Assembly (NCBI GenBank): GCA_003818285.1 | Contig: RPRB01000006.1 | Span: 2,504-66,503 of the forward strand | Reading direction: 5' to 3' | From: Myxococcaceae bacterium | Lineage (GTDB): Bacteria; Myxococcota; Myxococcia; Myxococcales; Myxococcaceae | DNA: 64,000 nt | Part shown: positions 36,043-62,174 of the stretch, one piece after another | How positions within the stretch are numbered: position 1 is the stretch's first letter | How the letters are laid out: every line of letters starts with the position of its first letter | Notes under the pieces: model-generated | Databases searched by the model: none | Told to the model about the DNA's origin: nothing | Seen by the model: the letters and a program-made list of their open reading frames with translations, nothing else | Made by a program: the position numbers and the translations under genes

Positions 36043-36067
36043 GCAGCCTCCTTGCGGAGGCCAGGGA

Positions 36068-40307: not shown

Positions 40308-41354
40308 TCACAGGTCCTCCGTCGTGAACCGTCGGTCGCGCGCAGGCACGAACACGCATCGGCAGTGCGGGTGCGCGGGGATCAAGCTGCGGGCAACGTT
40401 GATGCGGTAGGGTCCCTCCTCGGCGATGTCTTCGCACTCCGGGCAGACCTCGTCGTCGCCGGCCGTCAGGACGTTGACGCGCTTCAGCTTCTCGATCGCC
40501 TCCTGCGCCTTCCTGATCCTGCGGACGGTCTCGCGGTGGGGCACCGTGGTCCGGCTGACCTTCGAGCCTGCCCCCGTGTTCGGATTGAACTTCCGCTTCT
40601 TGTCCTCGAAGAACGACACAGCGTCCTGCGCAGGGCGGCGGATCTTCCTGACCTCCGGGATGATGCCGACCTCGGTGACCCCGACGGACTCGTAGGACGA
40701 CAGGCTTCCTTCGTTGAATGTCCGCATGACGATCGTGTCAGCCAGGGCGTCGATGCGGGTTCCGCCCACCTTGTCGATGCGGGAGTACATCGCCCGGAGC
40801 AGGAGGTTCGCATTCTTCTTGGACAAGATCCCGTCGGCTGCAGCCCGAACCAGGTTCTGGCTGACCGCCTCGCTGATGCCCTGCAGCTCCACAAACGCAG
40901 ACTGGACGATGGTGTCCACCCTGTCCCTGTGGTTCTCCGGCGACCTGGCGACGTTCAGATCCCGCGTGTTCCTGTCCGCGAACCGCAGCCCCTTCTCGAA
41001 GGCGCGCTCAACGTAGCCTGCCAGATACCGGCCATCGTGCTCGAGGACGTTCTGGGTCAGGGCGGAGTCGACGAACTGCTGGAAGCCCATGATCTTGGCT
41101 GGCCCAGCCGTGACCATGGCCGCGGCTGACATGCCCGAGAAGGCGGTCATGGGCTTCAGCCCGAGCGCGTCGTTGTCGATGATCTGCATCCGCAGCAGGG
41201 CGCGCAGCCGGTTCATGCGGATGGCCATGGCCGATCGCATGGCGGAGCGAATGGTCTTGGTCCCCGACGGGTCTCGGCTGGTCGGCTTGGCGTCCGACAG
41301 GTAGGTGCAGCAGGAGCACCTGTCGTGGATGACCTCGTTCTTGTACTTCAGCAT
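40308..41354 (-). CDS. Mu F-like / SPP1 gp7-like head morphogenesis protein
   Basis: C-terminal LTAGDDEVCPECEDIAEEGPY ... IPAHPHCRCVFVP is the hallmark of the Mu F family. Confidence 0.85.
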   Translation of the reverse strand: MLKYKNEVIHDRCSCCTYLSDAKPTSRDPSGTKTIRSAMRSAMAIRMNRLRALLRMQIIDNDALGLKPMTAFSGMSAAAMVTAGPAKIMGFQQFVDSALTQNVLEHDGRYLAGYVERAFEKGLRFADRNTRDLNVARSPENHRDRVDTIVQSAFVELQGISEAVSQNLVRAAADGILSKKNANLLLRAMYSRIDKVGGTRIDALADTIVMRTFNEGSLSSYESVGVTEVGIIPEVRKIRRPAQDAVSFFEDKKRKFNPNTGAGSKVSRTTVPHRETVRRIRKAQEAIEKLKRVNVLTAGDDEVCPECEDIAEEGPYRINVARSLIPAHPHCRCVFVPARDRRFTTEDL

Positions 41355-41361
41355 CGGTTCC

Positions 41362-41877
41362 TCACTGGAGCAGGAGCAGGTCGTCGTCCAGGACCACCGC
41401 GTCGACGAAGTCCACGGTGATCCGGAACCGATCCGGCCTCTCGGTCGGCATGGCTGTCAGTTGCACGCGCTTGCCGGCGTGCGGGGAGGGCTCCGGGATC
41501 AGGGTGGGGATTATCACCGATCCCCCGATCGGCAGCACCAGCGGGCTCCGCACGTGCTCTGGGACGGGTGTCTGCTCGGGTCCCTTGTGGGGATGGACGT
41601 AGAAGGAGAACACGTCGGGCAGCTCCCGAACGTGGAGCTCCAGACTCCGGGGACGAAGCGTCCGCCAGCCGAGACCTCCCCCCGTCCCGAACCGGACGGG
41701 AGGAGCAGCCGGCACCGTGAGCTCGAACGCGAAGACGTCAGGGGCCTCGGTGACCTCGAACGAAAGTCCGACGCCAGAGACGCCGTCGGGGGCAAACGAC
41801 AGCTTGAACCAGGCCGGAGCGGTCCCCCTGGGGAACCACCCGGATGGGCTCAGGAGCCGGTTGTAGAACTCACGCAT
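41362..41877 (-). CDS. hypothetical protein (171 aa)
   Basis: ORF MREFYNRLLSPSGWFPRGTAP... Confidence 0.5.
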   Translation of the reverse strand: MREFYNRLLSPSGWFPRGTAPAWFKLSFAPDGVSGVGLSFEVTEAPDVFAFELTVPAAPPVRFGTGGGLGWRTLRPRSLELHVRELPDVFSFYVHPHKGPEQTPVPEHVRSPLVLPIGGSVIIPTLIPEPSPHAGKRVQLTAMPTERPDRFRITVDFVDAVVLDDDLLLLQ

Positions 41878-42247
41878 GGGTGATCTGACCCGACACGCAG
41901 GTGACCGTGCCGTTGACCTCGATGGCCAGCTCGCTGACGATGACCTCGCCCCCGCCGCCCATCAGGCTGACGAGCATGGCGTCCACGACGGTGACGCCGT
42001 CCCCGTCGGCCAGGCGCGCCAGGTTGGCAGAGCCAGCTCCGGTGGCCAGGGCCTCGATGGGCGTTCCCCTCAGGGTCATCGTCCCTCCCGACGGGGCGGA
42101 GAAGGACGGCTTCTGCAGGGGGATGGTCGCCAGGAGCTCGCTGGCAGCCGTGAAGAGGAGCAGCATCCCCGGATCTGCCTTGGCGTCGATCCGATCGATC
42201 ACGATCTGGAGCCGGTCGTTCTTGGTGGGCATCGAGTACGATGACAT
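41870..42247 (-). CDS. hypothetical protein (125 aa)
   Basis: ORF MSSYSMPTKNDRLQIVIDRID... Confidence 0.5.
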   Translation of the reverse strand: MSSYSMPTKNDRLQIVIDRIDAKADPGMLLLFTAASELLATIPLQKPSFSAPSGGTMTLRGTPIEALATGAGSANLARLADGDGVTVVDAMLVSLMGGGGEVIVSELAIEVNGTVTCVSGQITHA

Positions 42248-42268
42248 TGCCTGTCCCCTGTTCTTCTG

Positions 42269-42496
42269 CTAGACCCACGCTGTCCCGTTCCAGAACCGGA
42301 CAGGCTTGGTGATCCACGCCACGCCGTCCCACACCTTCGACGGCTTGCTGCTCCACGACGTGTCGTTCCAGACCTTGAGCCTCGAGGCGGCTGCGGCGGT
42401 CGTCACTTCGCCGGAGAAGAAGCCGCCCGACATCGCGAAGTCCCGCGGGCCGTCGTCGACGACGTATCCGCCCGTTGCGCTGAAGCTTCGACTCAT
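42269..42496 (-). CDS. hypothetical protein (75 aa)
   Basis: Internal ATG with an ATGA junction. Repeated W..(K/T)W motifs (KVWNDTSW, KVWDGVAW, RFWNGTAW). Confidence 0.45.
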   Translation of the reverse strand: MSRSFSATGGYVVDDGPRDFAMSGGFFSGEVTTAAAASRLKVWNDTSWSSKPSKVWDGVAWITKPVRFWNGTAWV

Positions 42497-43812
42497 GATG
42501 TCACCACCGGCTTCGGGTCGATGTAGAACGTCGAGTTGTTTCGCATCGCCATCGGATAGATCGTGATCGGTCCCTTCTCCCTTGGCGTCACCGTCACAGC
42601 CATCGAGAACTTCGCGGTCAGCGCGCCGGCCCACGTGCCGTGTCCATCAGGCAGCGTAACAGGAGGGGCGAGATAGGAAACGTCCGCGGCGCTCGTGGCA
42701 CGCGAGCCGCTGACCTGACCGTCAGTGCCGAGATATTCAACGTCGATCCAGATGTCTTGGTTGGTCGGCCGCACGCCGCCCGCCCAGATGCCTTCGACCG
42801 TGACGGTGACCGGCACTCCAATCACTTCATTCCACACCGTGATGGGCAGGGCTTCGAACGGAAGCTTGTTGCGGTTGGACCCTGTCGCCAGTCGCCACGA
42901 GATCGGGAAGGTGCCATCGCTCGCTCCTCCGCTCCTGACGATGGTCGCCTCGGTGAACATGCCGCCGGCCCTGTTGTGCTTCTCAGTCCTGTAGTTGGTG
43001 TCGCCGGTATCGCATCGAATGTACGTGATCTCAAGTCCGCCGAGCGAGGCGATGATGGCGCTGTACGGGGCGCAGGGTCCGATGCGACAATCCTTGAAGA
43101 CGTAGGTGTGAGAGTTGGACGCCGCCCCAGAGATCATGGACTTGCCTGCCCCCATGACCGACAGGTCGCTCCCCTCCTGAAGCAATGTGCCGATAGCCGC
43201 GCCGGGAAGGTAGAGCGTCGTCGGTACGATGGCGCCAACGATGAACGGTTCGCCAAATCCACGAATGCTGACGCGCCCGCCCGGCGAGACGCCTTGCGAG
43301 ACGTTGCCGAAGCTGACTTGGGTTCTCTCGAGAATTGTTATCGAGCCGTTGACGCCCGGAGCAATGCGAGATCCAGTCGCCGTACTGACCAGAGCCAGCA
43401 AGCAACGAACCATGCGCCACGACGTTTGCCCTGAGCCTATGGCAATGCTTGTGACGTTGGCGCCGGTGCCGCAGTAGAACTGCACGCCGTAGCATTCGGC
43501 GACGCTTCCGGAGAGAACGAGGTTGCCGCCTAGCTGCGTTGTAATCTTGGCCGTCGTTCGAAGGTCGGCAAAGACGGGAGGAACCGAACCGCCGACGCGC
43601 AGAACGCAATAGACGTAGCACGGACTGGCTTCGGTGCCTGGCGAAGTGATGAGCGCAGCGCCGGCGTTGATCTCATTGTGGTCATCAGCAAGAAAGAACA
43701 CATCACTGATTGCCTTGCTCGTCATCGCCGCGGCGAGCGTCAGGTATGCGTTGGCCCAGTCTGCCCCTGAGGCAGCGCCCGTCGCTCCGCTCCATACGAA
43801 ATAGTTGGCCAT
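42493..43812 (-). CDS. beta-helix (pectate-lyase-like) tailspike / depolymerase candidate
   Basis: Internal ATG with a TGATG junction. 439 aa, rich in G/S/T/N/V short repeats typical of parallel beta-helices. G+C is lower than the genome average by eye. Confidence 0.55.
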   Translation of the reverse strand: MANYFVWSGATGAASGADWANAYLTLAAAMTSKAISDVFFLADDHNEINAGAALITSPGTEASPCYVYCVLRVGGSVPPVFADLRTTAKITTQLGGNLVLSGSVAECYGVQFYCGTGANVTSIAIGSGQTSWRMVRCLLALVSTATGSRIAPGVNGSITILERTQVSFGNVSQGVSPGGRVSIRGFGEPFIVGAIVPTTLYLPGAAIGTLLQEGSDLSVMGAGKSMISGAASNSHTYVFKDCRIGPCAPYSAIIASLGGLEITYIRCDTGDTNYRTEKHNRAGGMFTEATIVRSGGASDGTFPISWRLATGSNRNKLPFEALPITVWNEVIGVPVTVTVEGIWAGGVRPTNQDIWIDVEYLGTDGQVSGSRATSAADVSYLAPPVTLPDGHGTWAGALTAKFSMAVTVTPREKGPITIYPMAMRNNSTFYIDPKPVVTS

Positions 43813-44069
43813 CAGTTGGTGTCCACCCAGACGTCGTAGAGAGCAGGGTCGAGCGGAGCCATCGTGCCGACGGTCATCCTGGCGATCCTCTCCCAGTCCG
43901 CGTTCTCTCTCGCGTACAGCTTGTCGTCGATCGGAGCCTCTGGAAGTGTATTGGCTGCCGACGCTGCCTTCCATCGCGCGCCGTCCCAGATGTACTGCGG
44001 GACGCCGCCCAGAGGAGGGACGGGATAGAGCTGACCAACTGTTGGTGAGGCAGGGAAGTTGAGGGCCAT
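43812..44069 (-). CDS. small fibre-associated protein (85 aa)
   Basis: MALNFPASPTVGQLYP ... YIWDGARW resembles short fibre N-terminal modules. Confidence 0.5.
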   Translation of the reverse strand: MALNFPASPTVGQLYPVPPLGGVPQYIWDGARWKAASAANTLPEAPIDDKLYARENADWERIARMTVGTMAPLDPALYDVWVDTN

Positions 44070-44070
44070 G

Positions 44071-47000
44071 TTATCTATACTCCTTGATTATAACTCCACC
44101 ACTGCCACCACTGCCGCCAAGAACTCCAACATTTTCATTCACTGAATAGCCAGCAGAACCGCCGCCACCGGGGAATTGTCCACCGCCACCGGCCACTAGA
44201 TAATCCCCCACCTTTCCGCCAGAGCCGCCCATCGGTGCATTGCCGCCGACGCCCGGAAGCACGAACGTTGGAGTCATGCTGCCAACAGCCCACGTTCCGG
44301 GAGCGCCCGCGATGTTAAGGTCGCCGCCTGAACTCGTCCCGCCCGCGCCACCAGCGATGTTGCTAACTGCGCCACCGGCTCCACTCGTGCCGCCGCCACC
44401 ACCGCCAGCGGTCAACAAGTCTCCGAATGTCGTAGTGCCGCCAACTGCTGCGCCACCACCACCAGCGCCGATCGTCACGGTTTGCGTCGTTGGTGAATTG
44501 ATGCGCTTGCGAGCGTATCCGCCTGACCCGCCGCCGCCTCCGGTAGAGACCTGCCCCGCGGTTGTCGCGCCACCATTGCCGCCGCCGCCACCGCCGCCCC
44601 ATGCTTCCACAACGATGAAAGCAACATCGTCGCTTGACGGCGACCACTCGCCGCTTGCTGTGATGATGGTCTCGCCGATCAGCAAACCATCACCGGGCAG
44701 CACGCCCTGAATGGCGACACTCCATGCATCAGACGCCACGCGCATCGTCACGTCCTGCCAGAAATAGTTACCCTCTCCGTAATTGGTTCTAGGACAGCCC
44801 GCGCCGGAAGTCGTGTACGTCGCAAGCACGTACGTAACTTCATCTGGATACTGTGCGGCTGGCGGTGGGGTCGTCATAAAATAATTGTCGTCATCGCGGG
44901 CAATGCAAATGAAAGTACCGGCAGCAACGTTGGCTGGCACTTCAAGCGCAGCCTCCACCCATCCCTCACCGATGCTTTCATCGGTCATGACGGTGGTGCC
45001 GATAAGCACGTCGAAATCGAAGTCATAAAGAAAGAGTTGTCGCGTTGATACTGCTGACGGAGCGCCCGACCTGTAGAACCTTAGATGCGTTATCTGACAA
45101 TCCACATTCATCAAAAGGACGGTACCAAAGCGAAGGTTCGCGGCCTCGACAGTTGTCGAAGGTACAGCGGCATCCGGGAAAATGTGATGGGCTGCTCCGA
45201 GTGCACTTTCTGTATCCTTCGGGCCATACAGAGCATGACCTTCTGTGTCGATGTAGTAATCTCCATCAAGCCCAAGACTGCTGGCAGGGGGACCGACGCC
45301 GTCATGAATGATGGCTCCCGTCGCCTGTATGGCAACCGGCCACGTCTCGCCCAAAGACATGTACTGCCATTCAAGGTCGGTGCCGTAGTTGTATGGGGCC
45401 TCGTAGCCACTAGGAGGAAAGACGTCCGGGCCGTCGCCGACACCCATGCGGATGCCGAAGTGAACGGCGGCATCAGGATTGGTTGGTACCGGGGCAACGG
45501 TTTGCGCGTAAGCTAGAGCATCAAAGGAAGCGACAATCGCCAAGTGCTGATCGGCCACAACAGGAATTGGAGCGGGGAAGGCGGCGGACACCCAACCGTC
45601 AAAGCCCGCAGTCTCAACCGTCGCATTGGTTACACCAAGCAGCGTCCCCGTCGTTCCGTCGTACAGATAAAGTTGCCGCGTCGTATTTGCAGAAGTGGGG
45701 TTGCGCCGAAACTTCGCGCTGATGACCTGCCCATCAACGAGTGCGATGAACTCGTTGCCGACCACTAATGGATTTGGGTCGAACTCCCACAAGGGAGGTT
45801 CGGTCAACATGAACTCTGGGTCCAGCATCACGGCTTCGAACTTCGGGCCGTAAAGCGTGTCCGTGTCCGTATCGATGTAGTAGTCGCCGCCCTCGCCCAG
45901 CGCATCGTCGGGCAGGCCTGTGCCTGAATGAATTGTCTGGCCGCTGCCGCCGCCGCCTCCGGTTCCTGGTATGCCTTGTGGACCTTGCGGTCCCTCCGGA
46001 CCTTCAGGTCCAGCAGGACCTGCGGCACCGTCAACGCCGTCAGCTCCATCTGCACCATCAGCACCGGGCACGCCCTGGATGCCCTGAGGTCCTGCCGGGC
46101 CCACCGCTCCGTCAGCACCGGCAGGTCCTTCAGGTCCTTCAGGTCCAGCCGGTCCGGCTTCTCCGAGGGGGACCGCCACCGTCTCGACCCACTGGATGGT
46201 GTCGCCGTCGTCGTAGTTGATGAAGAGAACGCCGATCGAGCTGTCCCACCACAGCGCGCCGACGGGCGCACCGACGGGGGCGGTGTCGCTGATGATGATG
46301 ATCGAAGCGTCGCCCCCTCCCGTGCCTGGCTCACCTTGCGGACCTTCAGGACCCATCGGCCCTTCAGGTCCCATCGGTCCCACATCGCCGGTATCTCCCT
46401 TCGGACCCTGAGATCCGTCTGCTCCATCTGCTCCAGGAGGGCCTGCTACGCCGTCAGCGCCAGCAGGACCAGCAGGACCAGCAGGGCCAGCACTGCCGTC
46501 AGCACCAGCAGGACCTTGCAGTCCAGGTTCACCGTCATCTCCCTTTGGTCCTTCTGGTCCTTCTGGTCCTTCTGGTCCTGTCGCTCCGTCGATGCCCGTC
46601 GGTCCCTGGGGTCCCTCGGGTCCAGGAGCACCTGGAGCACCGGGTTCTCCTGGGTCGCCCTTCTCGCCCACGGTCCGGAGGAGGACGGTGATGGCCTGGT
46701 TGGCTGCGAACACGCCGGAGCCCGACGCGGACACGAACTCGACGGGCACCGTGAAGTAGTCTGCGAGGTTGGTGGCCGGCGCAGTCATCCGCCAGACCTG
46801 GTTGCTCAGAGCGAAGTCCCGGTCCTGGATGATGAACTCGTCGTCGGTGTTGGCGAGGGACAGGAGGACGGACAGGTCGAAGTCGTCCTGCGTGATCCAG
46901 TCGACCGACAGCATGGTGGCGGCCTGCTGGTCTGTGTTGTTCCAGCGCAGCTTGCCGGTGCCGGGGTCCGCCATCGCCACCGAACTTGTGTCGGCCCGGT

Positions 47001-47400
47001 AGTGGAAGACCGAGGTCGAAGCCCCCTGCTCCCCGGTGGCGCCAGTCTCACCCGGCGGGCCCTGGTCGGCGGCGTCGCCGAACACGGTCGACTGGGCTGG
47101 CCCCAGGGTCCGGACCCGCAGAGGAGCGACGATCGCCCCGTCGTTGTGCTGGAGGAAGACGAGGACCTGCTCCGACGGGTCGTCGTTGTACACGGTCACC
47201 AGCTCGACCGTCCGGAGGATGCCCGCCCCAGGCGAGGGCGACGCCACGACGGTGCCCCCGCCCGCGTCCGCGACGATCGTGTTGAGCCTCCCCGGCGTGA
47301 TCGTGTCGTCGATGGTGGTCTTGTCGACCCACGACGCGTGGACGCGCGCCGCCCTGTCGGTGACGACCTCCAGCGTGTCGCCCTCCTGGAGTATCAGCAT
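44071..47400 (-). CDS. collagen-like tail fibre protein (1109 aa)
   Basis: Long Gly-X-Y runs ([13 protein letters not shown]; [22 protein letters not shown]...). Two similar modules ([12 protein letters not shown].. / [12 protein letters not shown]..). Gly-rich C-terminus. Confidence 0.85.
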
Positions 47401-50021
47401 CAGGTTGCCTCATCTTCGCTGTCGTCTTCGTCCTCAGTGATCCGCTCGAACTCTTTGATGCGGCCCTTCTCGTCGTGCTTCGTGACCGTCGTGATCTCCC
47501 GCCCGCCCCTGTTGACGATGGTCACGGGGACGGTGACGTGGATCGTCTGCTCGTCCTTCGGGGCGCGCTTGCTGAGGGCGGTCGCCGCGTCCTTCTGGGT
47601 CTTGAAGTTCCCGATCTTCCCGTTCTTGTCGTCGGCCCTCCACCTCACCGCCTCGCCCCGTCCCGACGCGACCGCACCCCCTGCGCCGCCGGACCTCTGC
47701 TCGTTCGTGACGACCTGCTTGACGGTGCCCACCTTGGTGTTGCCCTTGTAGGCGTTGTAGGACTTGAGCTTGACCGGCGCCTCCTTGCCCAGGACCTTGG
47801 TCTCGCGGTTGTGGTCGGAGGCCTCGTACATGTCCAGGCCTGCGACCTGGCCGGCGAACTTGCCCTTCTCGGTGGTCTCTCCGACCTTGGGCGCAGCCGC
47901 TGCCGCCCCTCCGCCCCCGCCCGATCCGAACTGCCCGTTCTCTGCTCGCTCCTGGTTCTCGTTGTACTCGTCCAGGGCCACCTCGGGGACGTCGGTCTCG
48001 TTGTTGAAGCCCGTCATCTGGATCTCCTGGAAGACCTCGGGCCCGAGGACGATCTCGCCCCGGTAGGGCTCCATCTCGTCGATCTGCTCAGGCCCGTTGT
48101 AGGTGATCGTGACGTGCGGGTTGTAGTCCTCGTAGTCGTACGAGCAGCCCTGGTGCTTCAAGGAGGAGTGGCGCCAGGACAGGTCGGAGTTGCCGAAGGC
48201 GAGGACGACAGCCTTGCCGAACCTCTCGACGATGCGGGGTCCGCCGGGGACGACGCGGATGTGCCCCTCCAGGTCCTGGCCCCAGGCCTCGCCCATCTTG
48301 ATCCAGTCGACCGCCTCCTTCGAGTACATGATCGTGACGTGCATCTCGGCCGGGGTGACCGTGGACTTGAAGCCCTGCGAGGCCGCCCAGTCGATGATGG
48401 CCTGCGCGTTCAGCACCCTGCGGTAGACGTAGAGGGGCTTCGGGGTCGCGTCGGCGAGGGCGTCCCGGACGGCGGCGTTGCCCGACGGGGTCCGCATCCT
48501 GTCCCTGCCCTTGATCCTGCGGCGCCGCTGGGCAGCCCGGAAGTCGTTGGCCGCCCTCTTGGCCGGGTCCAGGTTGCTGTTGGCGGGCTCGGGCAGATCC
48601 GCGTCTGGGTCCTCGGGGTCCACCTCGGCGTTCGGGTCAGCGTTCGGATCGACCACGGGCTCAGGTTCTGCGCGCAGACCCTCCTCGTGGTCTGGGTCGT
48701 CGAACTCCTCGATGATCTGCTCGATGCCTGGGTAGGTTCCGTCCTCGATGAGCTGCGCCTCCCTGGCCTTCTTGAGCACCACCGGGTCCAGGATCGCGGC
48801 ATCCACGTCCACCTTGAACGTGTCGGCCTTCTTCTTCTCCAGGTCAGCCTTCTGCTCCGGCGTCATCTGCCAGAGGGAGTTCCACACGTAGAAGATCTCC
48901 TCGGGCTTGGAGCCGAGGGCGGACCGGATCAAGACTTCGTCCAGGCGCCAGAGCACCGGGGAGTCGTCGTTCTTCTGCTTCGAGGAGACCGAGTCGTAGT
49001 AGTTCCTGGTGTCGCTCTCGCCCGTCGCGCTCATGCCCGCGGGGGACTGGCCGAAGAAGCGGGTCGCCGGGATGTCGGCTGCGCCGCAGACCATCAGGAA
49101 GTACATCTGCAGGATCTCGGGCAGGGACGCGAACGAGGCCACCTGCCTCTGCCACTCCTCCTCCTTGTCGATCAGGAGCATGGAGTGCACGCCCTTGATG
49201 ATGTTGGCGAGGCCGAACCGCTCGAGCAGGTTCCGCTCGTAGGTCCTGGATGAGATGTTCAGCGTCAGCCCTGGGATCTTGATGATGTCGATCTTCGACT
49301 CCGCCACGAGCTGAGCCACCGACGCAGTCACCAGGCCGCAGGACTTGATGGCGTCGGCGACGTTCAGCAGGACGGAGTCGCCCCAGGGCTGCTTGGTCGT
49401 CAGGACGTCCTGTCTCGGCATCCCGACGAAGGGGACGACGCGGCTCGGGTGGAAGCGGACCAGGGTGCCGTTGAACAGGGAGTGGCGCTCGTAGTAGGAG
49501 GGCTCACCGTACCAGGGCGAGGTGATGTCGTCGATCATGGGGCCAGGCGACACGTCCCAGCGGCTCACCGGGTGCAGGAACTCCAGGTCTCCGACCCTGA
49601 CCGCCTCGATGTCCACCGGGGTCTCGTTGGATGCGCCCTTGATGCCCATGACGATGCCGGCGCCCCCGTAGAGCCGAGCCTTCTGCTTGGCCACCTTCAT
49701 CTTCTGCTGCAGGCCAAGGCGCTGCTCCTCCGCCTCGATCGCCGTGATCTCCTCCGGGTCGCCGGCCTGCCAGGACCGCCACTCCCTGGTGGCGTCCTCC
49801 GCCGGAATGTCGATGAGCTTCCGGGCGATCCAGTCGCCGCGGTAGGCCGCGTCGGCCTGCGCCTGGTCCATGTCCGGCATGACCCAGTTGACGCCGGTCA
49901 TCTTGTCCTTGGCCGTGCCGAGGCCCGTCGCCAGGTTCTCCAGGCTGTCCCGCGCAGACTTCTGGCTCGGTGGGGGCTTGGATGCCCGACGGGTTGGTGC
50001 GGAAGCTGCTCTCTTAGCCAT
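47400..50021 (-). CDS. portal protein (DUF1073-type) with C-terminal 2H-phosphoesterase-like domain
   Basis: N-terminal [16 protein letters not shown] and ~470 aa of portal-like sequence. Residues ~527-667 carry two H-V-T-I motifs 75 aa apart (MHVTIMY, PHVTITY). A long charged tail follows. Confidence 0.85.
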
Positions 50022-51567
50022 CTGTGTTACCCCTGACCCAACTGAGCGATGTGTCGTAGTTGTAGGTCTTCTCGATCATCTTGTTGAAGGCGCCGGCCGA
50101 AGCGTCCACCTGGTCCTTGAACTGGCCCGACGGGAAGGCTTCGTGCTCGTTGATGAAGTCCCGGTTCCACTTCTTTCGCAGGAGCTTGACGTTGCCTGCC
50201 TGCACCGCAGCCGCGTAGGGCTCGGCCCGGACCTCCTTCTTGCCGGTCACCCGGTCGATGAAGCAGAGGTGCCCGTGCAGGTTGGCGACCGTGCGCTGCG
50301 CGCTCTCCTTGCCGCCGGACCCCGGCTCCTGCTCCACGTAGACGACGGTCCGCTGGATGCTGTCGTCCAGCTCGGCCGTCGCCTTGATCTTGGTCTCTCG
50401 GGTGTAGGCGTCCCACTGGCCCCGGACGACGTCCTCGACGATCACGGTGCCGTCGGCCATCTGGTTCATGAGCACGCCCGCCGTGTGGGCGCCGCCTCCG
50501 GACGTGCCGGCCTTGTCCCAGTACCTGACCCGCTTCTTGATCTCGGACTGGGGGAACGAGCCGATGATGCGCATCTCCTCGATGGGGAACATGCCGCCGC
50601 CCTGGATGATCGGGTTCTGCTGATACAGGCTCTCCCACGAGACTTCGGTGTAGGTCTTCCGCTGCTCCAGGAGGAACTCCAGGGACTTGAACTCTGGGAA
50701 CAGGGCCTCGCCGACGGACCGGGGCTCGCAGTTCACCCGGATCGACTCCTCGGTGGCGAAGGCCGGGTAGCGGAGGATGGTCATGTCGGGGAAGCGCTCG
50801 ATCAGTCGGCCGGCGGGGTCGTCCACGTGCCACCTGGTGACGGTCATGAGCATGCCCGCCCGGTCGTCGAACCGGGACATGAAGTCGTCCGTCATCCAGG
50901 ACCAGGTCTTGTCTCGGATGGTCGGCGACTGCGCCTCGCCCCGGCCCTTGATCGGATCGTCGACCACGCCGAAGTCCAGCGACTTCCCGGTGATCTGCCC
51001 GTCGGGGGCGGTCGTGTTCTCGAAGTAGCCCTTGCGCCCGACGAAGTGCATCAGGTGGCTGTTCCGCTGGTACTGGCCCGCGTACTCGCCGCCGCCCTTC
51101 AGGGGCAGGATGCGCGTGTCCGGGAACGCCCTCTTGAAGCGATCGTCCTCGAACCGCCTCTGCAGCTCCGTGTTGGTCTTCGTGCCCAGGTCGCCCGAGT
51201 ACGATGCGAAGATCGTCCGGAAGTCGGGCTCGTGCCCGTGGAACCAGGACACCCCGTCCTGCACGCTCCTGGACTTTCCATGTTGCGGCGGAGCCATCAG
51301 GAGCAGCTTCGGCCGGTGGCCGTTCTTCAGGCGGATGAAGAACCTCTGCAGGAGGCCGCTGACCTGGCGCGGCCACCAGCCGACCCGCATCTCGGGGTCC
51401 ATCATCTTGCGGTAGGCGTACAGGTTCTCCCTGGCCTCCGCCGCTTGCAGGTCCATGATCAGGTCCAGGTCCTGCTGGGTGAACCTGGGGCGGTTGCGGC
51501 TGTCGTGCTCTGCGCGGGCGATGGCCTCCCTGATCTGCTCCTTGCGGGGGTTGTGCGCGTCCATCAT
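50014..51567 (-). CDS. terL: terminase large subunit
   Basis: Internal ATG with a TGATG junction. Walker A LLLMAPPQHGKS. 517 aa. Immediately upstream of the portal gene. Confidence 0.85.
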   Translation of the reverse strand: MMDAHNPRKEQIREAIARAEHDSRNRPRFTQQDLDLIMDLQAAEARENLYAYRKMMDPEMRVGWWPRQVSGLLQRFFIRLKNGHRPKLLLMAPPQHGKSRSVQDGVSWFHGHEPDFRTIFASYSGDLGTKTNTELQRRFEDDRFKRAFPDTRILPLKGGGEYAGQYQRNSHLMHFVGRKGYFENTTAPDGQITGKSLDFGVVDDPIKGRGEAQSPTIRDKTWSWMTDDFMSRFDDRAGMLMTVTRWHVDDPAGRLIERFPDMTILRYPAFATEESIRVNCEPRSVGEALFPEFKSLEFLLEQRKTYTEVSWESLYQQNPIIQGGGMFPIEEMRIIGSFPQSEIKKRVRYWDKAGTSGGGAHTAGVLMNQMADGTVIVEDVVRGQWDAYTRETKIKATAELDDSIQRTVVYVEQEPGSGGKESAQRTVANLHGHLCFIDRVTGKKEVRAEPYAAAVQAGNVKLLRKKWNRDFINEHEAFPSGQFKDQVDASAGAFNKMIEKTYNYDTSLSWVRGNTDG

Positions 51568-52655
51568 CAGAATGCAAAGCTCACGTTGGTGGCTTCGACC
51601 TTGTCGACGTCGAGCGGGTCGTCCGGGTCCGTCTTGAACGTGATCGAGACCGTGATCGTGCCTGGCCCCCTCTTGGTCTCCCCCGTGTTGAAGGTCTTGT
51701 AGACCCCGGCCATCTCGTCCTCCGGGAAGCGCCCGACGTCGTCGTGGTCGACGTTCGGCGGGAAGAAGGCCGGGGCGCCTGCGTAGAAGTCGACGTCGGC
51801 GTTGAAGATGTCGTCGGTCGCGACGTCCTCGGGCTGAACCACCGGCCACGCCTCGTACCCCATGACCTTCAGGTACCGGGCGAACCAGAGCTTGCCCTCG
51901 TAGCTGGCCTTGCCGCCGATCGCCCCCGGACGGGACCAGGTCACGTCGAAGGTCACCACCTTCTGGCCGACGGCGACAGCGGCAGACTTGAGGGCGTCGT
52001 AGGCGATCCAGATCAGGCGCGTGCCCGGACCGACGGTCTGGGTCTTGGACGCTCCGACCTCGTCGTGGCCGGCAGTCTCGGTCAGCAGGAAGATGTCCCA
52101 GTTGAAGCCGGCCAGGCCGATGTCCGTCGCGATCGACATGGCGAGGACGTTCGAGTAGAGCGAGCTGGCATCGTCGGGCGCAGTGTAGTCTGAGCCGCCC
52201 GCTCCATTCCACGAGACTGTGAACGGCACCTCCTGCTCGCCGAACGGATCGAAGCCGGAGGAGCAGATCGCCCCGGTCAGCGTGTCGATGAGGACGTACT
52301 CACCGGCGTCGATCACGTGGAAGGTCAGCCCGGAGAAGACCTTCGACCTGGGGTCGGCCACCGCAGGGAACGCGTGGAACTTGTTGGGGGCTGCGGTGAA
52401 GGCGGGCACGGGGTCGGCTTCGCTGCCCGGAGGGGCAGACACCTTCTCTGGGAACGGGCCGTAGGCCAGGACGCCGTCCTGCCAGCCGAACCAGGGGAAG
52501 TCCGACTGCAGAGTGATGCGGACGCTGGGGTCCGTGCCCCCCGACGGGATGCTCGAGTCGACCTGCCCCATGCCCTGGACGAACAGCAGGAGATACCGGC
52601 CTCCGGGCCAGTTCACGTTCACCAGGTGCTGGGTGGGGTCGTGGGCTAGCGGCAT
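51567..52655 (-). CDS. hypothetical protein (362 aa) in the small-terminase position
   Basis: Internal ATG (MPLAHDPTQHLVNVNWPGG...) coupled at both ends. Beta-rich. No TerS-like HTH recognised. Confidence 0.55.
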   Translation of the reverse strand: MPLAHDPTQHLVNVNWPGGRYLLLFVQGMGQVDSSIPSGGTDPSVRITLQSDFPWFGWQDGVLAYGPFPEKVSAPPGSEADPVPAFTAAPNKFHAFPAVADPRSKVFSGLTFHVIDAGEYVLIDTLTGAICSSGFDPFGEQEVPFTVSWNGAGGSDYTAPDDASSLYSNVLAMSIATDIGLAGFNWDIFLLTETAGHDEVGASKTQTVGPGTRLIWIAYDALKSAAVAVGQKVVTFDVTWSRPGAIGGKASYEGKLWFARYLKVMGYEAWPVVQPEDVATDDIFNADVDFYAGAPAFFPPNVDHDDVGRFPEDEMAGVYKTFNTGETKRGPGTITVSITFKTDPDDPLDVDKVEATNVSFAF

Positions 52656-53332
52656 CAGCGTGCAGTCCGGCCGAAGGTTCGCTTTGGGAGGTAGCTGTCG
52701 GCCCCTGGGGGCTTGCGGAGGGGCTGGACGCTGGCCCGGTGGTGATACGGGCAGTAGGCCAGCGGACGCGCTCGGCTGGCCCCTGAGGCCCGTGGCGCGT
52801 CGCACACCAGCCCGTCGGGCATCGGCCACTGGCAGCGATCGCCCTCGGGGACGGTGGCATCCCCTGCCGAGGTCGCCATCGGACCCTCGAGGCTGGCGGC
52901 TCCCTTGGTTTCCTTGGACTTCGGAGGCCTCACCTGGTCGATCTGCATGGTCCTGGACACAAACACGGTGGTGTTCCCCATCCCCATGTTGACCCTGCCA
53001 GCCCGAGGCTCAGGTCCGGTCTGAGTGTCCTGGGACTTGTAGTTCGCCTTGGCTCTGACCCTGCTGATCTGACGCATCTTCACGTCCATCCGCACGCCAG
53101 TTGCCCTGCCGGCGGTCCTCGGATACTTCTTCTGCAGGTCGAGGCGGTGGATCTTGCCCCCGACGGCAGAGATCGTGAAGGTGACACAGGAGCGGGGGAA
53201 CTCCGCCCGCATCGCCTTGACGATCTTGGCGATCGTCAGGTAGGCCCCGCGCGTGCCCGAGTACAGGAGCTCGAGGTGCGCGATCTCCTGAGAGGTCCAC
53301 CTGCTGTTCGGGGAGTCGGTCTTTGTCATCAT
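52655..53332 (-). CDS. GcrA-like cell-cycle regulator homologue
   Basis: The N-terminal W-T-x-x-E ... ISAVGGKIHRLDL and the C-terminal CQWPMPDG..C ... YCPYH resemble GcrA (WT.E ... KVHRLGL; C.WP.G ... FC ... PYC..H). The start is at 53332 or 53329. Confidence 0.65.
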   Translation of the reverse strand: MMTKTDSPNSRWTSQEIAHLELLYSGTRGAYLTIAKIVKAMRAEFPRSCVTFTISAVGGKIHRLDLQKKYPRTAGRATGVRMDVKMRQISRVRAKANYKSQDTQTGPEPRAGRVNMGMGNTTVFVSRTMQIDQVRPPKSKETKGAASLEGPMATSAGDATVPEGDRCQWPMPDGLVCDAPRASGASRARPLAYCPYHHRASVQPLRKPPGADSYLPKRTFGRTAR

Positions 53333-55666: not shown

Positions 55667-58444
55667 TCAGCCCAACGGGGGCACCCGTCCGCGATGCTGC
55701 CGGGGTACTTCCGCGTTCAGATCCTGGTCCGTTCGGCTCAGGGTGGTGTGTCCGCCCTGCCGGTTCGCAAGGAACCCAGCCCTCGCATTCCAGTGCGCCA
55801 GCCCCGCCTCGTTCAGCTTCAGACCGCCCACGTGCCGCTGCGGCTGCCCGAACTTGTCGAACTTGAACATTGCGCTATCCGGGTGGAACTTCAGGGCCTT
55901 CGCGAATGCGCCAGGCGACGGGATCGGCAGGCCGTGGTTCTCCTCTCGCCAACTGTGAAACGCCGCGTAAAGATCCGCGCTGACGTTCATCGCGGTCCGG
56001 TCGTACTCGCAGCAATCCCTGACGAAGCCGATCGAGATGTTGCTGTCCTCCCGGAGCTCAGCCGAGGCCTCGTCCATGTCAGGAGTGTACGAGTAGTGGC
56101 CCCTCGCCAGGGCCCGCTTCATCCCGGCAATAGCCCAGTTCAGGACGCCTGACTTCTCCTCCTCAAGCACCCAGTCCGCCGGAGACGAGTAGCCCCTCGC
56201 AACCGCCTCAGCGGCCACGCCCGTCGGGCGCAGGGGGTCGAACACCGTCCGGATGCGCAGGATGGCCAGGCGGTTCTCCATTGCCCTGCTCATCTCCCTG
56301 AACTGCGGCATCACGTTCGCGCCCCAGAACGACGGCCCGCGGTAGACGTGCGCGGTCTGGGCACCGTTCTTGATGTTCACCCCGACGGGGTCCGACGACA
56401 GCAGCGCCTTCACCATCGAGCTGATCTCCCACTTGGACTGATCGAAGGCTTCGTGCAGGACCCAGGGCACGCTGCGGAGGAACGGCTCCGTGCCGTGCGG
56501 CTTTGAGAGCTGGTCGATGGGCTGCGTGATCGGGGCGTTCGTTATCAGGCCGCTGAGGACGTTCAGGAGGGTCGACTTGCCGGAGTTGCTCTCGCCGACC
56601 AGGACCAGAGCCCGCATCAGCGCCTTCTGCTTCCGGGCCAGGAGCGCCATGCCTAGGTTCTCCTGGATGAATGCGACCGCGCCGTCGTCCTTCACGATGT
56701 CCTTGAGCGTCCGCATCCAGATCGGGCAGGCGGCCGCCGGGTCGTACTCGCACTCGATGCGGGCTGTGGCGTAGTCGTCCGGCCTATGCGGCCGGTGGTG
56801 CATGGTTTCCAGGTCGACCAGGCCTGACTGCGTTGAGATCATCCCGTGCGCGTCCCACTGCACGTCAGCTTCGTCCTGGTGGATCTCCCCCATCCGCTGC
56901 AGGTGGGCGATCGTCTCATTGATCACGGTCGTCGTGGGCACGATGCCCAGGGCGTCGCACCCGACGTTGATCTCTCGAGCTAACCAGGACTTTTCCTCCT
57001 TCGTCACCCCGTACATCGCCCACAGCCCATCCCGGTAGCGCCAGGGCACAGAGCCGATGTACATGAGCTGCTCGCCCCGCTGCTCCAGAGCTGCCAGGAC
57101 GCCGGCGGCCAGGACCACGTGGGCGTCCTTCTTGCCCTTTTTCTTCCTCCCCTCCTTGGGCTCAGGCCGGGGCTCGCTCTTCCGCTGCGCACGGACCTGG
57201 TCGAGGTGCACCACCTGGGCAGCCCTCCCCGTCGGGCGGGGTGCTGGCTTCGGCATGGAGGCGAGCTGCTGCATGCCCCGGTTGGCCTGCAGGGAGGCCA
57301 GCTCCGGCGGCTCCCCGCCCATCGCTTCGTCTAGGATCTCGCCGCTGTCGTCCTCAGGATCGTGTGAGCCCTCATCGGCCGTGAGTGCCCTCTCTTCCTC
57401 CACTTGGTCCTCTGGCGGCTCCGCCGGGAACTCGTGGCCCACCTTCTTGATCCACCCCCGCATCGCGCCTCGGACCTTCCGGCGCTCGACGTCCATGTTC
57501 CAGCTGTCCTCGGCGACGCGCTCTAGGGCCTCCATCATCTTGGCCTCGACGAAGTCCTCGGTGTAGCCCTGGGACAGCATGCCCGACGTGACGTCGCGGA
57601 TGGTCAGGTGGACGGAGAAGGTCTCGTCTATGCCCTCGTCCCGGCGCTGCTCCAGGTACTCCATCCGGGCCAGGCGGTCCCGCCAGTCGATGTGGTCGGT
57701 GTAGCCCTGCAGCTCAGCCACCCGGAGGAACGGGTTCTCCTGCTCCGCCACCTTCCGCTCCCGGACCTTTCGCGTCAGCACTGGAGGGGCCTCCTGGGCG
57801 GCCAGGGAGCCCAGCCAGGCGCTCAGCACCGCTCGGGGGTACCTTTCCCCCTCGCCAGCCAGCACGCGCACCAGCGCCCACGCCCCGGCTTTGGTGTTGT
57901 GGGTTCCCGGAACCCGGAGCAGGGTGACAGCGTGCCGGGTCGCCTTGTCCCCCGCCAGGTGGTTTCCAAGGACTTGGAGTTCCGCCTCGTAGGCTCTGAC
58001 GTCCTCGGGTCCGGGCGCATCCGTCGGGTCGGTGAAGAACCAGTAGGCGTGGACGCCCCCTCCGGACCTGTGCATTCGGCTGGGCGGGTTCGGCAGGGCG
58101 GCCAGGGCTGCCAGGACCTCGTCCTCGGTGTTCAGGATGTCCTTGAAGTCGATGTCGACGTGCAGGCACGTCAGGGCGGCCACGTTGGGCTTGACCCGCT
58201 TGTGCCCCTTCAGGATCGGGCTGACGCAGTGGAAGCAGCCCCGCTCGGCCCTGTCGTGCTTGACCAGGAACCGGCGGATGCGCTCTGGGTCCCTCGTCAG
58301 GACGTGGACTTCGCCCTTGCCTGACTGGCCCCGGACGTTGGGCAGGCTGCACACGTAGACGGGGTGGTCGTGCCCCTGCAGCATGTAGTCGACATAGAGC
58401 GTCAGGTCGGCGCCGGGGCCGACTTCTTCGTTAATCTCAGTCAC
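55667..58444 (-). CDS. bifunctional primase-polymerase / SF3 (D5/P4-type) helicase
   Basis: AEP motifs LHVDIDF and SGGGVHAYWFF at the N-terminus. Walker A LVLVGESNSGKSTLLNVL in the C-terminal third. 925 aa. Confidence 0.9.
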   Translation of the reverse strand: MTEINEEVGPGADLTLYVDYMLQGHDHPVYVCSLPNVRGQSGKGEVHVLTRDPERIRRFLVKHDRAERGCFHCVSPILKGHKRVKPNVAALTCLHVDIDFKDILNTEDEVLAALAALPNPPSRMHRSGGGVHAYWFFTDPTDAPGPEDVRAYEAELQVLGNHLAGDKATRHAVTLLRVPGTHNTKAGAWALVRVLAGEGERYPRAVLSAWLGSLAAQEAPPVLTRKVRERKVAEQENPFLRVAELQGYTDHIDWRDRLARMEYLEQRRDEGIDETFSVHLTIRDVTSGMLSQGYTEDFVEAKMMEALERVAEDSWNMDVERRKVRGAMRGWIKKVGHEFPAEPPEDQVEEERALTADEGSHDPEDDSGEILDEAMGGEPPELASLQANRGMQQLASMPKPAPRPTGRAAQVVHLDQVRAQRKSEPRPEPKEGRKKKGKKDAHVVLAAGVLAALEQRGEQLMYIGSVPWRYRDGLWAMYGVTKEEKSWLAREINVGCDALGIVPTTTVINETIAHLQRMGEIHQDEADVQWDAHGMISTQSGLVDLETMHHRPHRPDDYATARIECEYDPAAACPIWMRTLKDIVKDDGAVAFIQENLGMALLARKQKALMRALVLVGESNSGKSTLLNVLSGLITNAPITQPIDQLSKPHGTEPFLRSVPWVLHEAFDQSKWEISSMVKALLSSDPVGVNIKNGAQTAHVYRGPSFWGANVMPQFREMSRAMENRLAILRIRTVFDPLRPTGVAAEAVARGYSSPADWVLEEEKSGVLNWAIAGMKRALARGHYSYTPDMDEASAELREDSNISIGFVRDCCEYDRTAMNVSADLYAAFHSWREENHGLPIPSPGAFAKALKFHPDSAMFKFDKFGQPQRHVGGLKLNEAGLAHWNARAGFLANRQGGHTTLSRTDQDLNAEVPRQHRGRVPPLG

Positions 58445-58532: not shown

Positions 58533-59459
58533 TCAGCGGCGCCTTGCGGTGCCGCCGTTCTTCTTGGCAGGTGCAGCAGCCCTCTGCGCCGGAGTGGCCG
58601 CGCGCTGGTTCGGGCGGGCTGCCCTGACGGGAGCCTCCTCAGCCTGCGCCTCGGCCTCCTCGCCGGCCTCCTCCCCCTCGTCGCCAGCGTCAGCCGGGTC
58701 GGAGGGGGTGTACTCGAACAGGGACTTCTCCTCCCATCCGACGACCTTCATCGTCGGCACCTTGATCCATCCGAACTCGGGGTTGGAGTGCTTGTACTTC
58801 CTGACGCCGACGGCCACGATCGGCCACTCGTCGGGACGGGTCCGCATCTCCTTGCCGTAGACTTTGCAAAGGTCGCCCATCATGCCCAGGCCGCCCTTCG
58901 ACGAGGTGGCGAACGTGAACAGCTGCTCCTCCTCGGCTTGGTCCCCTGGGGTCTTGAGGAGCAGGTAGTTGCTGTACTGCCAAGGGTCCCGCGCCTTGCC
59001 CTGGTCGTCGACCTCCCACTGCTCCTCGTCGGAGTCACCCAGCTCTTCGCGTCGAGCGGGCCGGAAGCCGGACGCCAGCGGACCCATGAGCTGTTCCGCG
59101 GGCTTGTTGTCCACCCACTTGATCCAGCCGATCATGAGCTGGTTCATGTTGCAGGTGTACTCTGTGCCCTCTTCGATCTCCTCGTCGTCCTCGCCGCACA
59201 GCCAGTCCCCCTTGTTGAACTTCAGGAGCTGCCCGACGATGAACCGACCGGCGAACTGGTCGCCGTAGGCCTCGAAGGCGTTGCGCTCGTTCACTCCGCC
59301 GACGGACGTCTGGGCGGGTCGGGCCACGGCGGTGCCGGTGCTCGGTGGTGCCTCGTCTGCTGGCGGGATGATCGTCTCACGGTTTGGTGCGCGTGGTGTG
59401 CTTCTTACCATTTTTCTGTCTGCCTTCTGCTGTTTCACTGCTTGCTGCTTTCGATCCAC
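58533..59459 (-). CDS. hypothetical protein with acidic then basic tail (possible ssDNA-binding / annealing partner)
   Basis: 308 aa, immediately downstream of the nuclease gene. The tail is DPADAGDEGEEAGEEAEAQAEEA followed by basic residues. The function is a guess from context. Confidence 0.5.
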   Translation of the reverse strand: MDRKQQAVKQQKADRKMVRSTPRAPNRETIIPPADEAPPSTGTAVARPAQTSVGGVNERNAFEAYGDQFAGRFIVGQLLKFNKGDWLCGEDDEEIEEGTEYTCNMNQLMIGWIKWVDNKPAEQLMGPLASGFRPARREELGDSDEEQWEVDDQGKARDPWQYSNYLLLKTPGDQAEEEQLFTFATSSKGGLGMMGDLCKVYGKEMRTRPDEWPIVAVGVRKYKHSNPEFGWIKVPTMKVVGWEEKSLFEYTPSDPADAGDEGEEAGEEAEAQAEEAPVRAARPNQRAATPAQRAAAPAKKNGGTARRR

Positions 59460-59518: not shown

Positions 59519-60619
59519 CTATCCGCGCGCCCGGAGCTGCTTCTTCCGGGGCGTGGAGTTCTTTGTGGCCTCAGCCTCGAGCGCCACCCTGACCATCAGC
59601 ATGTCCGACGGGTCGCCGGTCGTGCTGTATGCCTCGACGTCCACGCCAGCCTCGGTTGCTGCGGCGCGGATGCCCTTCATGTCGTAGTTCCGCCGGCCCT
59701 TCACGGCCGACCAGGTCACCACGCCGGGGATGCGGCGGATGCCCTTGTCCTTCAGCCTGTCCTTGATGAGCTGCTTCTGGGTGTTCAGGGCGATCTCGGC
59801 CTTGTCTTTCAGGCCGTCCAGGCGCTCGTGCTCCCGGCACAGGTCGGTGATCTCAGCGGTGAACTGGGGGTCGGCTGCCGCCTCAGACTCCGGGACGGAG
59901 TGGCGGACGATGCCGCAGGCCTGGGTGAACGGGCAGTACTCGCACTCCTTGCCGCCGGCGATCCACCCCTCCGGGGGCAGCTCGTCGGGGCGGGTTGCGG
60001 TCTTGATCCGGACGGCGCGCTTGTGGCCTGCGTCGTAGACCTTCGGGTCGAACTTGATCGCGAACTCGTGGACTTCGTCCAGGAAGGAGGCGTCCATGTA
60101 GGACAGGATCGCGTACTCCGGCTTGTAGACGGTCAGCTCCCGGACCAGGCCGAGCTGCATCTGCGTCTGGAACTCGTTCTCCTCCTTGGCCCTCGACATG
60201 TTCACGCGGGGGTCCACCGACTTGCACTCGACCAGGACGCACTGCCCCGCGCCGATGTCAGCGATCCCGAAGTCCTTCAGGAGCAGGTCCCGAGGCTGGT
60301 CGATCAGCAGCCCGTCTGGGGTCGCCGACGCGTATCGGTCGTTGAAGGTCTTCTGGTCCTTCCCGGCCCACAGGAGCTTCTTGCCGTACTTCCTGCGCAT
60401 GGCGGGGACGTAGAAGTGCTGCTCGAGCAGCTTGCCCCTGGCCCTGGCGCCCCATCGGTCGCCGTGCCCCTCGTCCACTCGCCCCTCGGTCTTCACCCAG
60501 TACATCCTGCGGGAGCAGAGCCCGATCTCCGACGCGCCGATCGTGCGCTGCCGGTCCATCACGAACGTCGTCTCCATCGTTGGTGACAGCGCGTAGGCTT
60601 CCAGGGCTTCTCTAATCAT
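59519..60619 (-). CDS. PD-(D/E)XK nuclease, Cas4/RecB-like with Cys cluster
   Basis: TPDGLL ... VLVECKS (D ... ExK) and a Cys pattern C(35) ... CEYCPFTQAC typical of Cas4/AddB-type Fe-S nucleases. Confidence 0.75.
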   Translation of the reverse strand: MIREALEAYALSPTMETTFVMDRQRTIGASEIGLCSRRMYWVKTEGRVDEGHGDRWGARARGKLLEQHFYVPAMRRKYGKKLLWAGKDQKTFNDRYASATPDGLLIDQPRDLLLKDFGIADIGAGQCVLVECKSVDPRVNMSRAKEENEFQTQMQLGLVRELTVYKPEYAILSYMDASFLDEVHEFAIKFDPKVYDAGHKRAVRIKTATRPDELPPEGWIAGGKECEYCPFTQACGIVRHSVPESEAAADPQFTAEITDLCREHERLDGLKDKAEIALNTQKQLIKDRLKDKGIRRIPGVVTWSAVKGRRNYDMKGIRAAATEAGVDVEAYSTTGDPSDMLMVRVALEAEATKNSTPRKKQLRARG

Positions 60620-61926: not shown

Positions 61927-62174
61927 GTCAGGATCTCCTTCTTCTGCGGCAGCGGGCGCTCCCCTCGGGTGAAGTGGACGAACCAGGCCTTCATCCCGAC
62001 GGAGTGGAAGCGGTTTTCGAGCTGGTTCAGCAGGCCGAGGCACTCCTCCAGGTCCTCCTTCTCCATCGCCTCGAGCATGTCCAGGGATGCCACGGGGGTG
62101 TTCTTGCCGATGGGCCGGGTCTCGAGCTCCGCCCGACGGAGCATGACCAGGAACTGCTTTGGCGGGATCTTCAT
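61923..62174 (-). CDS. hypothetical protein (83 aa)
   Basis: Internal ATG with a GAGGA Shine-Dalgarno and an ATGA overlap with the polymerase stop. Confidence 0.45.
   Translation of the reverse strand: MKIPPKQFLVMLRRAELETRPIGKNTPVASLDMLEAMEKEDLEECLGLLNQLENRFHSVGMKAWFVHFTRGERPLPQKKEILT

Follow-up and report, generated by a model that had tools for sequence, protein, structure and literature searches.

Characterised Acb1 proteins counteract the cyclic-oligonucleotide-based antiphage signalling system (CBASS) by metal-independent acid-base cleavage of the 3′-5′ bonds in its cyclic di- and trinucleotides, such as 3′3′-cyclic GMP-AMP (3′3′-cGAMP) and cyclic AMP-AMP-GMP (cAAG). Iyer et al. (2017; PMC5512222), who devoted a section to the 2H domain of polyvalent proteins, described fusions of this domain to portal and MuF proteins, and T4 Alt, an ADP-ribosyltransferase (ART), is known from the same paper as a packaged and injected effector. 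Iyer et al. (2022; PMC9503650) subsequently proposed that the MuF and portal fusions suggest packaging in the head and injection against SMODS/CBASS, cyclic-mononucleotide (cNMP) and CRISPR signalling. Here we describe such a portal fusion encoded in a 64,000-nucleotide stretch (the window) of the Myxococcaceae bacterium assembly GCA_003818285.1 (contig RPRB01000006.1, positions 2,504 to 66,503 of the forward strand). The window is a segment of a phage genome, and the gene, an open reading frame (ORF) at 47400-50021 on the minus strand, specifies 873 amino acids plus a stop codon. It had been singled out in an original prediction, made without database searches, as a portal protein with a 2H-phosphoesterase-like domain. 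What the sequence solidly predicts is a catalytically intact Acb1, attached to the portal end that faces the capsid interior and synthesised late, together with the head proteins.

Assignment of the domain to the Acb1 family

Two H-h-T-h motifs were confirmed at the positions originally given for them, namely H561-V-T563-I (48330..48341, minus strand) and H636-V-T638-I (48105..48116, minus strand), with 75 residues between the two histidines. These HVTI motifs do not occur together by chance, since the segment that holds them scores 124 bits on the Pfam Acb1 family PF23474: the profile matched residues 529-668 over its positions 2-138 of 144 with 124.2 bits (gathering cutoff 27) and an E-value of 4.3e-36. 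Based on this match, the predicted fold, Foldseek and tblastn, we assigned residues 527-680 to the domain (47982..48443, minus strand), including the lid aromatic F672; residues 527-667 are encoded by positions 48021-48443. LigT-type profiles remained below their thresholds, PF02834 (LigT_PEase) with 13.6 bits (cutoff 23.3) and PF13563 (2_5_RNA_ligase2) with 13.4 bits (cutoff 27), both at E ~0.08, and the Acb1 profile was thus 110 bits ahead. As judged from these profiles, the likeness of the domain to LigT and 2′-5′ RNA ligases is at the superfamily level only.

An AlphaFold2 (AF2) model of residues 515-873, built from an 82-sequence alignment, reached a predicted local distance difference test score (pLDDT) of 95-98 across the Acb1 domain, while the rest of the modelled stretch was mostly below 50; the low values included the start of the model, where the end of the linker lies. 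When this model was compared with the PDB by Foldseek, Acb1 of Erwinia phage FBB1 (7T26/7T27; apo and product complexes) ranked first, with an E-value of 2e-8, a template modelling (TM) score of 0.70 and 28% identity. It was followed by the ‘Anti-CBASS protein Acb1’ phosphodiesterase of Burkholderia phage BCSR5, and then by E. coli LigT and other 2H enzymes. The best matches in BFVD were likewise named Acb1, with TM scores up to 0.88. Furthermore, 7T26 was matched by sequence in a PDB search (E 2e-8), and tblastn with the domain alone reached T4 gene 57B, the original Acb1.

Residues were mapped by alignment with a T4-type Acb1 (ime09 gp57B), and their roles were taken from PMC9117128. H561, T563, H636 and T638 align with H44, T46, H113 and T115 of Acb1, while Y531, Y630 and F672 align with the base-stacking residues Y12 and F107 and with the lid residue W147. 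The position of W74 is taken by V590, beside a family-specific GGPRxVExFG insertion, and that of the adenine-contacting E141 by Q665 (48027-48029), which is Glu in most relatives and lies near the C-terminus, where the alignment contains indels. Conservation was assessed in the 81 proteins, all with PF23474, that were retrieved with residues 515-873 from 5.8 billion proteins. The first motif kept its His in 80 of the 81 and its Thr in all of them, the second kept its His throughout and T or S at its third position in 80, and E662 was present in every homologue. A further string, HVTV at residue 828, was considered as a third catalytic motif and rejected, as its His is not conserved and relatives have V or I there.

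Conceivably, the domain could serve the portal only structurally, for instance in head nucleation or DNA organisation, with its catalysis being irrelevant. It is indeed built into a structural protein that is essential, and since related portals with 44% identity occur without it (loci L007 and L008), it is dispensable for portal function. However, practically all 81 homologues retain both the HxT/Hx[TS] tetrad and E662, across very different fusions and stand-alone forms, which indicates selection on catalysis. A purely structural role is therefore, in our view, barely credible.

We also considered that the domain acts on RNA, either as a 2′,3′-cyclic phosphodiesterase that heals the ends left by anticodon nucleases or as a Usb1-like RNase directed at host RNA. 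This would be in line with the general chemistry of the 2H superfamily, with the weak sub-threshold LigT_PEase and 2_5_RNA_ligase2 matches, with LigT being the next-best fold, and with the fact that the equivalents of W74 and E141 are not conserved; an RNase role was also listed as one possibility by Iyer et al. (2017; PMC5512222). On the other hand, the Acb1 profile leads the LigT-type profiles by the 110 bits mentioned above, the nearest structures are Acb1 proteins, and the ORFs of the window that were scanned included neither an RNA ligase nor a polynucleotide kinase. Moreover, Iyer et al. (2017; PMC5512222) reported that the 2H versions in question are never found in association with RNA ligases. 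Action on RNA thus appears improbable to us. The original prediction had offered an Acb1-like degrader of immune signals and an RNA-end repair enzyme side by side; the former was borne out at the level of sequence and fold, while the latter is weak, given the lack of RNA-ligase association. Together, the profile score, predicted fold, catalytic tetrad and lid support the assignment of the domain to the 2H phosphoesterases of the Acb1 (anti-CBASS) family. The 2H superfamily membership that was first suggested could in this way be sharpened to a single family, and the structure prediction and Foldseek search placed Acb1 crystal structures ahead of LigT among the matching 2H enzymes.

Architecture of the portal-Acb1 gene

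The C-termini of solved portals face the capsid interior. In the present protein, a portal domain of the Phage_portal_3/DUF1073/TIGR01555 family occupies residues 23-439 (48705..49955, minus strand). Pfam Phage_portal_3 (PF06381) matched residues 55-403 with an E-value of 2.5e-99 and 332.8 bits (cutoff 33.8), the NCBIfam model TIGR01555 scored 257.5 bits on the portal part against a cutoff of 196, and the portal of phage Pam3 (8HDS; 621 aa) aligned to residues 23-439 in a PDB sequence search (E 1.9e-96). Residues 461-611 of 8HDS also matched residues 519-669 of our protein (E 7e-34). PHROG 146 (‘portal protein’) matched residues 17-667 over positions 17-581 of its 587-position profile; this profile covers both domains, and the portal-Acb1 fusion is therefore built into it. 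The portal and Acb1 domains are joined by a low-complexity linker at residues 441-526 (48444..48701, minus strand) that consists of 17% Ala, 16% Asp, 12% Pro and 12% Arg, with an acidic, Pro/Asp-rich half first and a basic half second. The last 205 residues contain 12% Gly, 10% Glu, 10% Ala and 9% Lys. The original description of a portal-like N-terminal part, an acidic Pro/Asp linker and a charged, Gly-rich tail of about 200 residues agreed with these data. By sequence comparison, no paralogue of the tail or the linker was found elsewhere in the 64-kb window.

The complete gene (47400..50021, minus strand), comprising portal, linker, Acb1 domain and C-terminal extension, is supported by the ORF list, by codon usage and by an identical 873-aa product called on the public Logan assembly contig SRR5468436_15799. 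The G+C content at third codon positions (GC3) was 0.87-0.99 in every 100-codon window along the ORF, to its end, and the last 205 residues are therefore genuinely coding. We rejected the tail as a read-through artefact on the same grounds, and because its last 45 residues are conserved in the related loci L005 and L006. A shorter, 833-aa version that starts at M41 is present in the protein library (P0082), and the start of the portal-Acb1 protein, M1 or M41, is thus uncertain. We also rejected the possibility that free Acb1 is made from an internal start, as no convincing ribosome-binding site precedes M509. Shortly before the lid, the in-frame ATG of M669 is preceded at a distance of 6 nt by AGGAG (48015-48040, minus strand). 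This ATG could be a nested start that yields the tail as a separate 205-aa protein; equally, the AGGAG may be a by-product of Gln-Glu codons.

Distribution of portal-Acb1 fusions

The Acb1 domain was fused to Phage_portal_3 (PF06381) in 38 of the 81 homologues, to an HK97-type portal (PF04860) in four and to a Mu-type portal (PF06074) in one. Three others had the XkdF prohead protease (PF14550) as a partner, three (P0070-P0072) had DUF2213 (PF09979), the family of this phage's own prohead protease, and two had ChaB; the remainder were Acb1 only. Several more homologues of ~300-360 aa consist of Acb1 followed by an extra ~145 residues, one of them being named XkdF by the Joint Genome Institute (JGI). 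Acb1 was N-terminal to prohead proteases (XkdF/S78_2 or DUF2213) in P0020, P0021, P0025, P0028, P0038, P0044, P0053, P0066-68, P0070-72, P0076 and P0081.

Two of the portal fusions bear the UniRef name ‘anti-CBASS protein Acb1 family protein’. Portals covering residues 23-667 were found in isolated phages of Rhizobium (RHEph04-06 and the RHph series), Pseudomonas (phiPSA1, MR15 and psage) and Synechococcus (Ssp-JY39 and Yong-M2-251), in Pam3, in Sinorhizobium phage HMSP1-Susan and in Aminobacter phage Erebus. By tblastn, at least 80% of the domain was covered in 45 isolated-phage records. Among related portals from IMG/VR, the domain was present in L004, L005, L006 and L010 and missing from L007, L008 and others. 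As related portals occur with and without it, Acb1 behaves as an accessory module. In L007 (7059-11321, plus strand), the related portal, with 44% identity over residues 22-472 and no Acb1, lies in a 1420-aa open frame (stop to stop) in which the portal domain is followed by ~620 residues without a Pfam match. The portal C-terminus may carry other cargo in the L007 lineage.

Judging from these sequences, the portal-Acb1 fusion is an old, recurrent and widespread architecture, to which the present protein adds one more example. The original prediction had taken the portal fusion to be apparently undescribed. This did not hold, as the fusion is already found in Iyer et al. (2017, 2022), PHROG 146, Pfam architectures, UniRef names and isolated phages, and the hypothesis put forward was essentially the published one of Iyer et al.

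A C-terminal extension with a delimiter motif

Typical portal-Acb1 proteins stop within ~10 residues of the lid, whereas the present protein runs on for ~190 residues. No homologue of the 205-aa tail was found in a word-index search of 5.8 billion proteins, nor was there a match by pattern search of IMG/VR or a Pfam family. In an exhaustive HMMER search of 1.84 billion representative proteins, the tail was matched only by a short motif and by one 54-aa fragment (P0088). This motif, the 22 amino acids at residues 684-705 (47907..47972, minus strand), matches [KN][YW]N.NQ[EP]RD..GRFGSGGGG, which is repeated two to four times in each of five long phage proteins. In P0085, motif copies at 34, 332, 523 and 703 bracket an ART domain (88-248) and a NUDIX domain (381-488). 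In P0083, P0086 and P0087, the copies come after an N-terminal domain and punctuate the long C-terminal remainder. The N-terminal domain in question shows a sub-threshold likeness to prohead serine proteases (Peptidase_S78, E 0.009), a suggestion that it may be a prohead protease. The profile of the unannotated phrog_38358 begins with the motif as well. The 64-kb window contains a single copy, and no second one was found there or in the related loci that were fetched; a literal-string literature search returned no relevant paper on it. Since the motif separates domains in large phage proteins, one of which has ART and NUDIX effectors, it behaves as a domain delimiter.

The motif is followed by a Lys/Gly/Thr-rich insert of 108 residues (706-813; 47583..47906, minus strand), for which neither the word-index search nor the exhaustive HMMER search detected a homologue. 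Most of the insert had a pLDDT below 50, and values of 70-78 were reached in two short stretches. The C-terminal module that comes next (residues 814-873; 47403..47582, minus strand) ends in an acidic tail. Its last ~45 residues (VTVPVT..VTKHD.KGRI.EFE plus the acidic tail) are conserved in P0088 and at the C-termini of the L005 and L006 portal-Acb1 proteins (L005 10038-10217, L006 9972-10151), with ten invariant columns in the alignment. The conserved end module belongs to no known family. It is present in L005, the closest relative at 47% identity, from which both the motif and the Lys/Gly-rich 108 residues are absent. Both represent an insertion specific to this phage. The motif lies directly after the Acb1 lid. 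This protein's own contribution is the tail, whose polyvalent-type delimiter motif hints at proteolytic release.

Possible packaged delivery or late action in the producing cell

The recurrent partners of the domain are three unrelated portal families and two prohead-protease families (PF14550 and PF09979). MuF is a further fusion partner of 2H domains (PMC5512222, PMC9503650). We tentatively favour, at slightly less than even confidence, a model in which a catalytically intact Acb1 on the interior-facing C-terminus of the portal is released and delivered as an anti-CBASS enzyme. The Acb1 domain would sit on a long flexible linker at the portal C-terminus, with up to 12 enzyme copies per head. 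The DUF2213 prohead protease (34819-36249) would probably free these copies by cutting the linker, the delimiter motif or both. The freed copies would leave the head together with the DNA and, as soon as the next host is infected, begin to destroy its cyclic-oligonucleotide alarm signals; newly synthesised copies would act likewise late in infection. The ~170 residues after the motif would represent a second cargo module. We favour this model because every recurrent partner is a head-interior protein, because the delimiter motif is common to effector-bearing proteins, because a prohead protease is encoded nearby, and because virion-borne CBASS antagonism has a precedent in ICP3 Gp15. A more far-reaching version is that the motif, in the form [KN][YW]N.NQ[EP]R(D)..G[RKQ][FW].SGGGG, is a general signal for processing by prohead proteases, and that the portals of this clade load and release several cargo modules for ejection, that is Acb1 plus the 170-residue tail with its conserved 45-aa end. 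This version we regard as unlikely, albeit worth stating.

Alternatively, the same Acb1 enzyme may be fused to the portal for reasons of timing or dosage. It would then act late in the producing cell, on free or prohead-bound portal, and the copies in the virion would be passengers that are not ejected. In support of this idea, a preprint (10.64898/2026.03.04.709575) reports that CBASS is switched on at the time of prohead formation, by the activity of the prohead protease, and direct fusions of Acb1 to such proteases link trigger and antidote (P0021, P0066, P0076 and P0070-72). If prohead proteases activate CBASS as this 2026 preprint reports, Acb1-protease fusions would join the two in one polypeptide. 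Judging from portal stoichiometry, portal synthesis would also give far more enzyme per cell than the 12 copies per virion, and the alignment consensus of the homologues contains no conserved portal-proximal cleavage motif in the linker. However, late action would leave unexplained why the partners are confined to the capsid interior, unless by tolerance alone, and it does not account for the polyvalent-type delimiter motif and the extra module. We consider it a realistic possibility, although we do not lean towards it.

Several points weigh against packaged delivery. Enzyme activity, cleavage from the portal and ejection are steps that we infer. A dose of twelve molecules per infection is small. 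In addition, CBASS reportedly becomes active late, around the time of prohead formation, so that delivery in advance would have no obvious edge over late synthesis. The narrow set of partners could reflect which of the head proteins tolerate appendages, rather than selection for delivery, and the 190 residues past the lid could get in the way of lid closure if they are not removed by cleavage. Lastly, with V590 and Q665 at the W74 and E141 positions, the predicted substrate range or base preference may differ from that of T4 and FBB1 Acb1. Packaged delivery and late action are not mutually exclusive, and RNA-directed and purely structural roles are much less likely than either of these two anti-CBASS models.

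Genome context

The portal-Acb1 gene is located directly downstream of the gene for the large terminase (50014-51567 or longer), with a MuF-like head morphogenesis gene (40308-41354), the DUF2213 prohead maturation protease gene (34819-36249; phrog_530, E 1.7e-87; PF09979, E 5.6e-51) and the gene for the PF09950 major capsid protein (33195-34160) further downstream. These genes are on the minus strand, as are those for a tape measure protein (24914-27076), a primase (55667-58444), a nucleotidyltransferase (58533-59459), a RecE-like exonuclease (59519-60619) and a DNA polymerase (62171-63994). No tRNA genes were found in the 64-kb window, and megablast identified no near-identical phage in INPHARED. 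The terminase frame is open for 732 aa (50014-52212, minus strand), while the public gene call begins at 51567 (517 aa), and the true start is uncertain. A 420-aa ORF without a family match (51567-52829, minus strand) ends exactly at the called terminase start.

In Pam3 and RHph_Y17, the MuF-like gene directly follows the portal gene, whereas ~6 kb (41362-47400) lie between the two genes here. This insertion holds a collagen-like fibre gene (44071-47400, minus strand), the ATG of which overlaps the portal stop codon. The encoded 1109-aa fibre has collagen repeats, two DUF4082 domains and a Gly-rich C-terminal domain. The insertion also holds ORFs of 493 aa and 171 aa without a family, and the L005 portal is likewise trailed by fibre-like and Gly-rich genes. 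A glycosyltransferase family-2-like gene (36802-37527, minus strand; Glycos_transf_2, E 1e-5, barely over the cutoff) is located inside the head module, between the MuF-like and protease genes.

Comparison with described systems

The fusions of Iyer et al. (2017, 2022) have the same architecture and the same proposed role, in that they would be packaged, injected and degrade nucleotide immune signals. These papers are purely computational, predate or do not use the name Acb1, and contain no description of a tail such as the one following the 2H domain here. In the literature searched, we found no experimental work on the portal-Acb1 fusion. Portal fusions are not mentioned in Hobbs et al. (2022), in the Panoptes paper or in two anti-defence preprints from 2025 (the EVADES preprint and a structural-modelling preprint), and the cryo-electron microscopy paper on Pam3 does not mention the domain.

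Acb1 of T4 (gene 57B) and of Erwinia phage FBB1 (7T26/7T27; Hobbs et al., 2022; PMC9117128) share with our domain the family PF23474, the compact 2H fold, the HxT/HxT tetrad and aromatic residues at the positions of Y12, F107 and W147. The identity amounts to ~28% with FBB1 Acb1 and ~25% with the T4-type protein. While the T4 and FBB1 enzymes are free proteins of 152 aa, the domain described here forms residues 527-680 of a portal, has Val at the W74 position and Gln at the E141 position, carries the extra GGPRxVExFG insertion and is followed by ~190 residues past the lid. In the portals of Pam3 (gp3; 8HDS), Rhizobium phages RHEph04-06/RHph, phiPSA1/MR15, Ssp-JY39, HMSP1-Susan and Erebus, both domains are collinear with those of our protein, at ~38-44% identity over residues 23-667. 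These Pam3-type portals are only 590-625 aa in total and end within ~10 residues of the lid, and the second motif of Pam3 is H-I-S as opposed to H-V-T here. For experiments, Pam3 or the cultured Rhizobium and Pseudomonas phages should be better suited than the present uncultured phage, which adds little beyond them to the question whether anti-CBASS enzymes are pre-loaded in the manner of T4 Alt, or simply co-expressed with head proteins that trigger CBASS.

T4 Alt, MuF-toxin fusions and the Dar proteins of P1 are likewise counter-defence enzymes on head-interior proteins. The delimiter YN.NQ[EP]R...G.F.SGGGG is common to the present protein and the ART- and NUDIX-bearing proteins. In contrast to polyvalent effectors, our protein has one recognisable effector domain and its carrier is a portal; as this carrier stays in the capsid, release of Acb1 would require proteolysis. 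The Gp15 ejectosome protein of vibriophage ICP3 (bioRxiv 10.1101/2025.07.23.666291) is also a virion-borne CBASS antagonist. Unlike Acb1, however, it is a stoichiometric inhibitor of the CapV effector that does not degrade cGAMP, and it is unrelated to the portal-borne domain in both sequence and fold.

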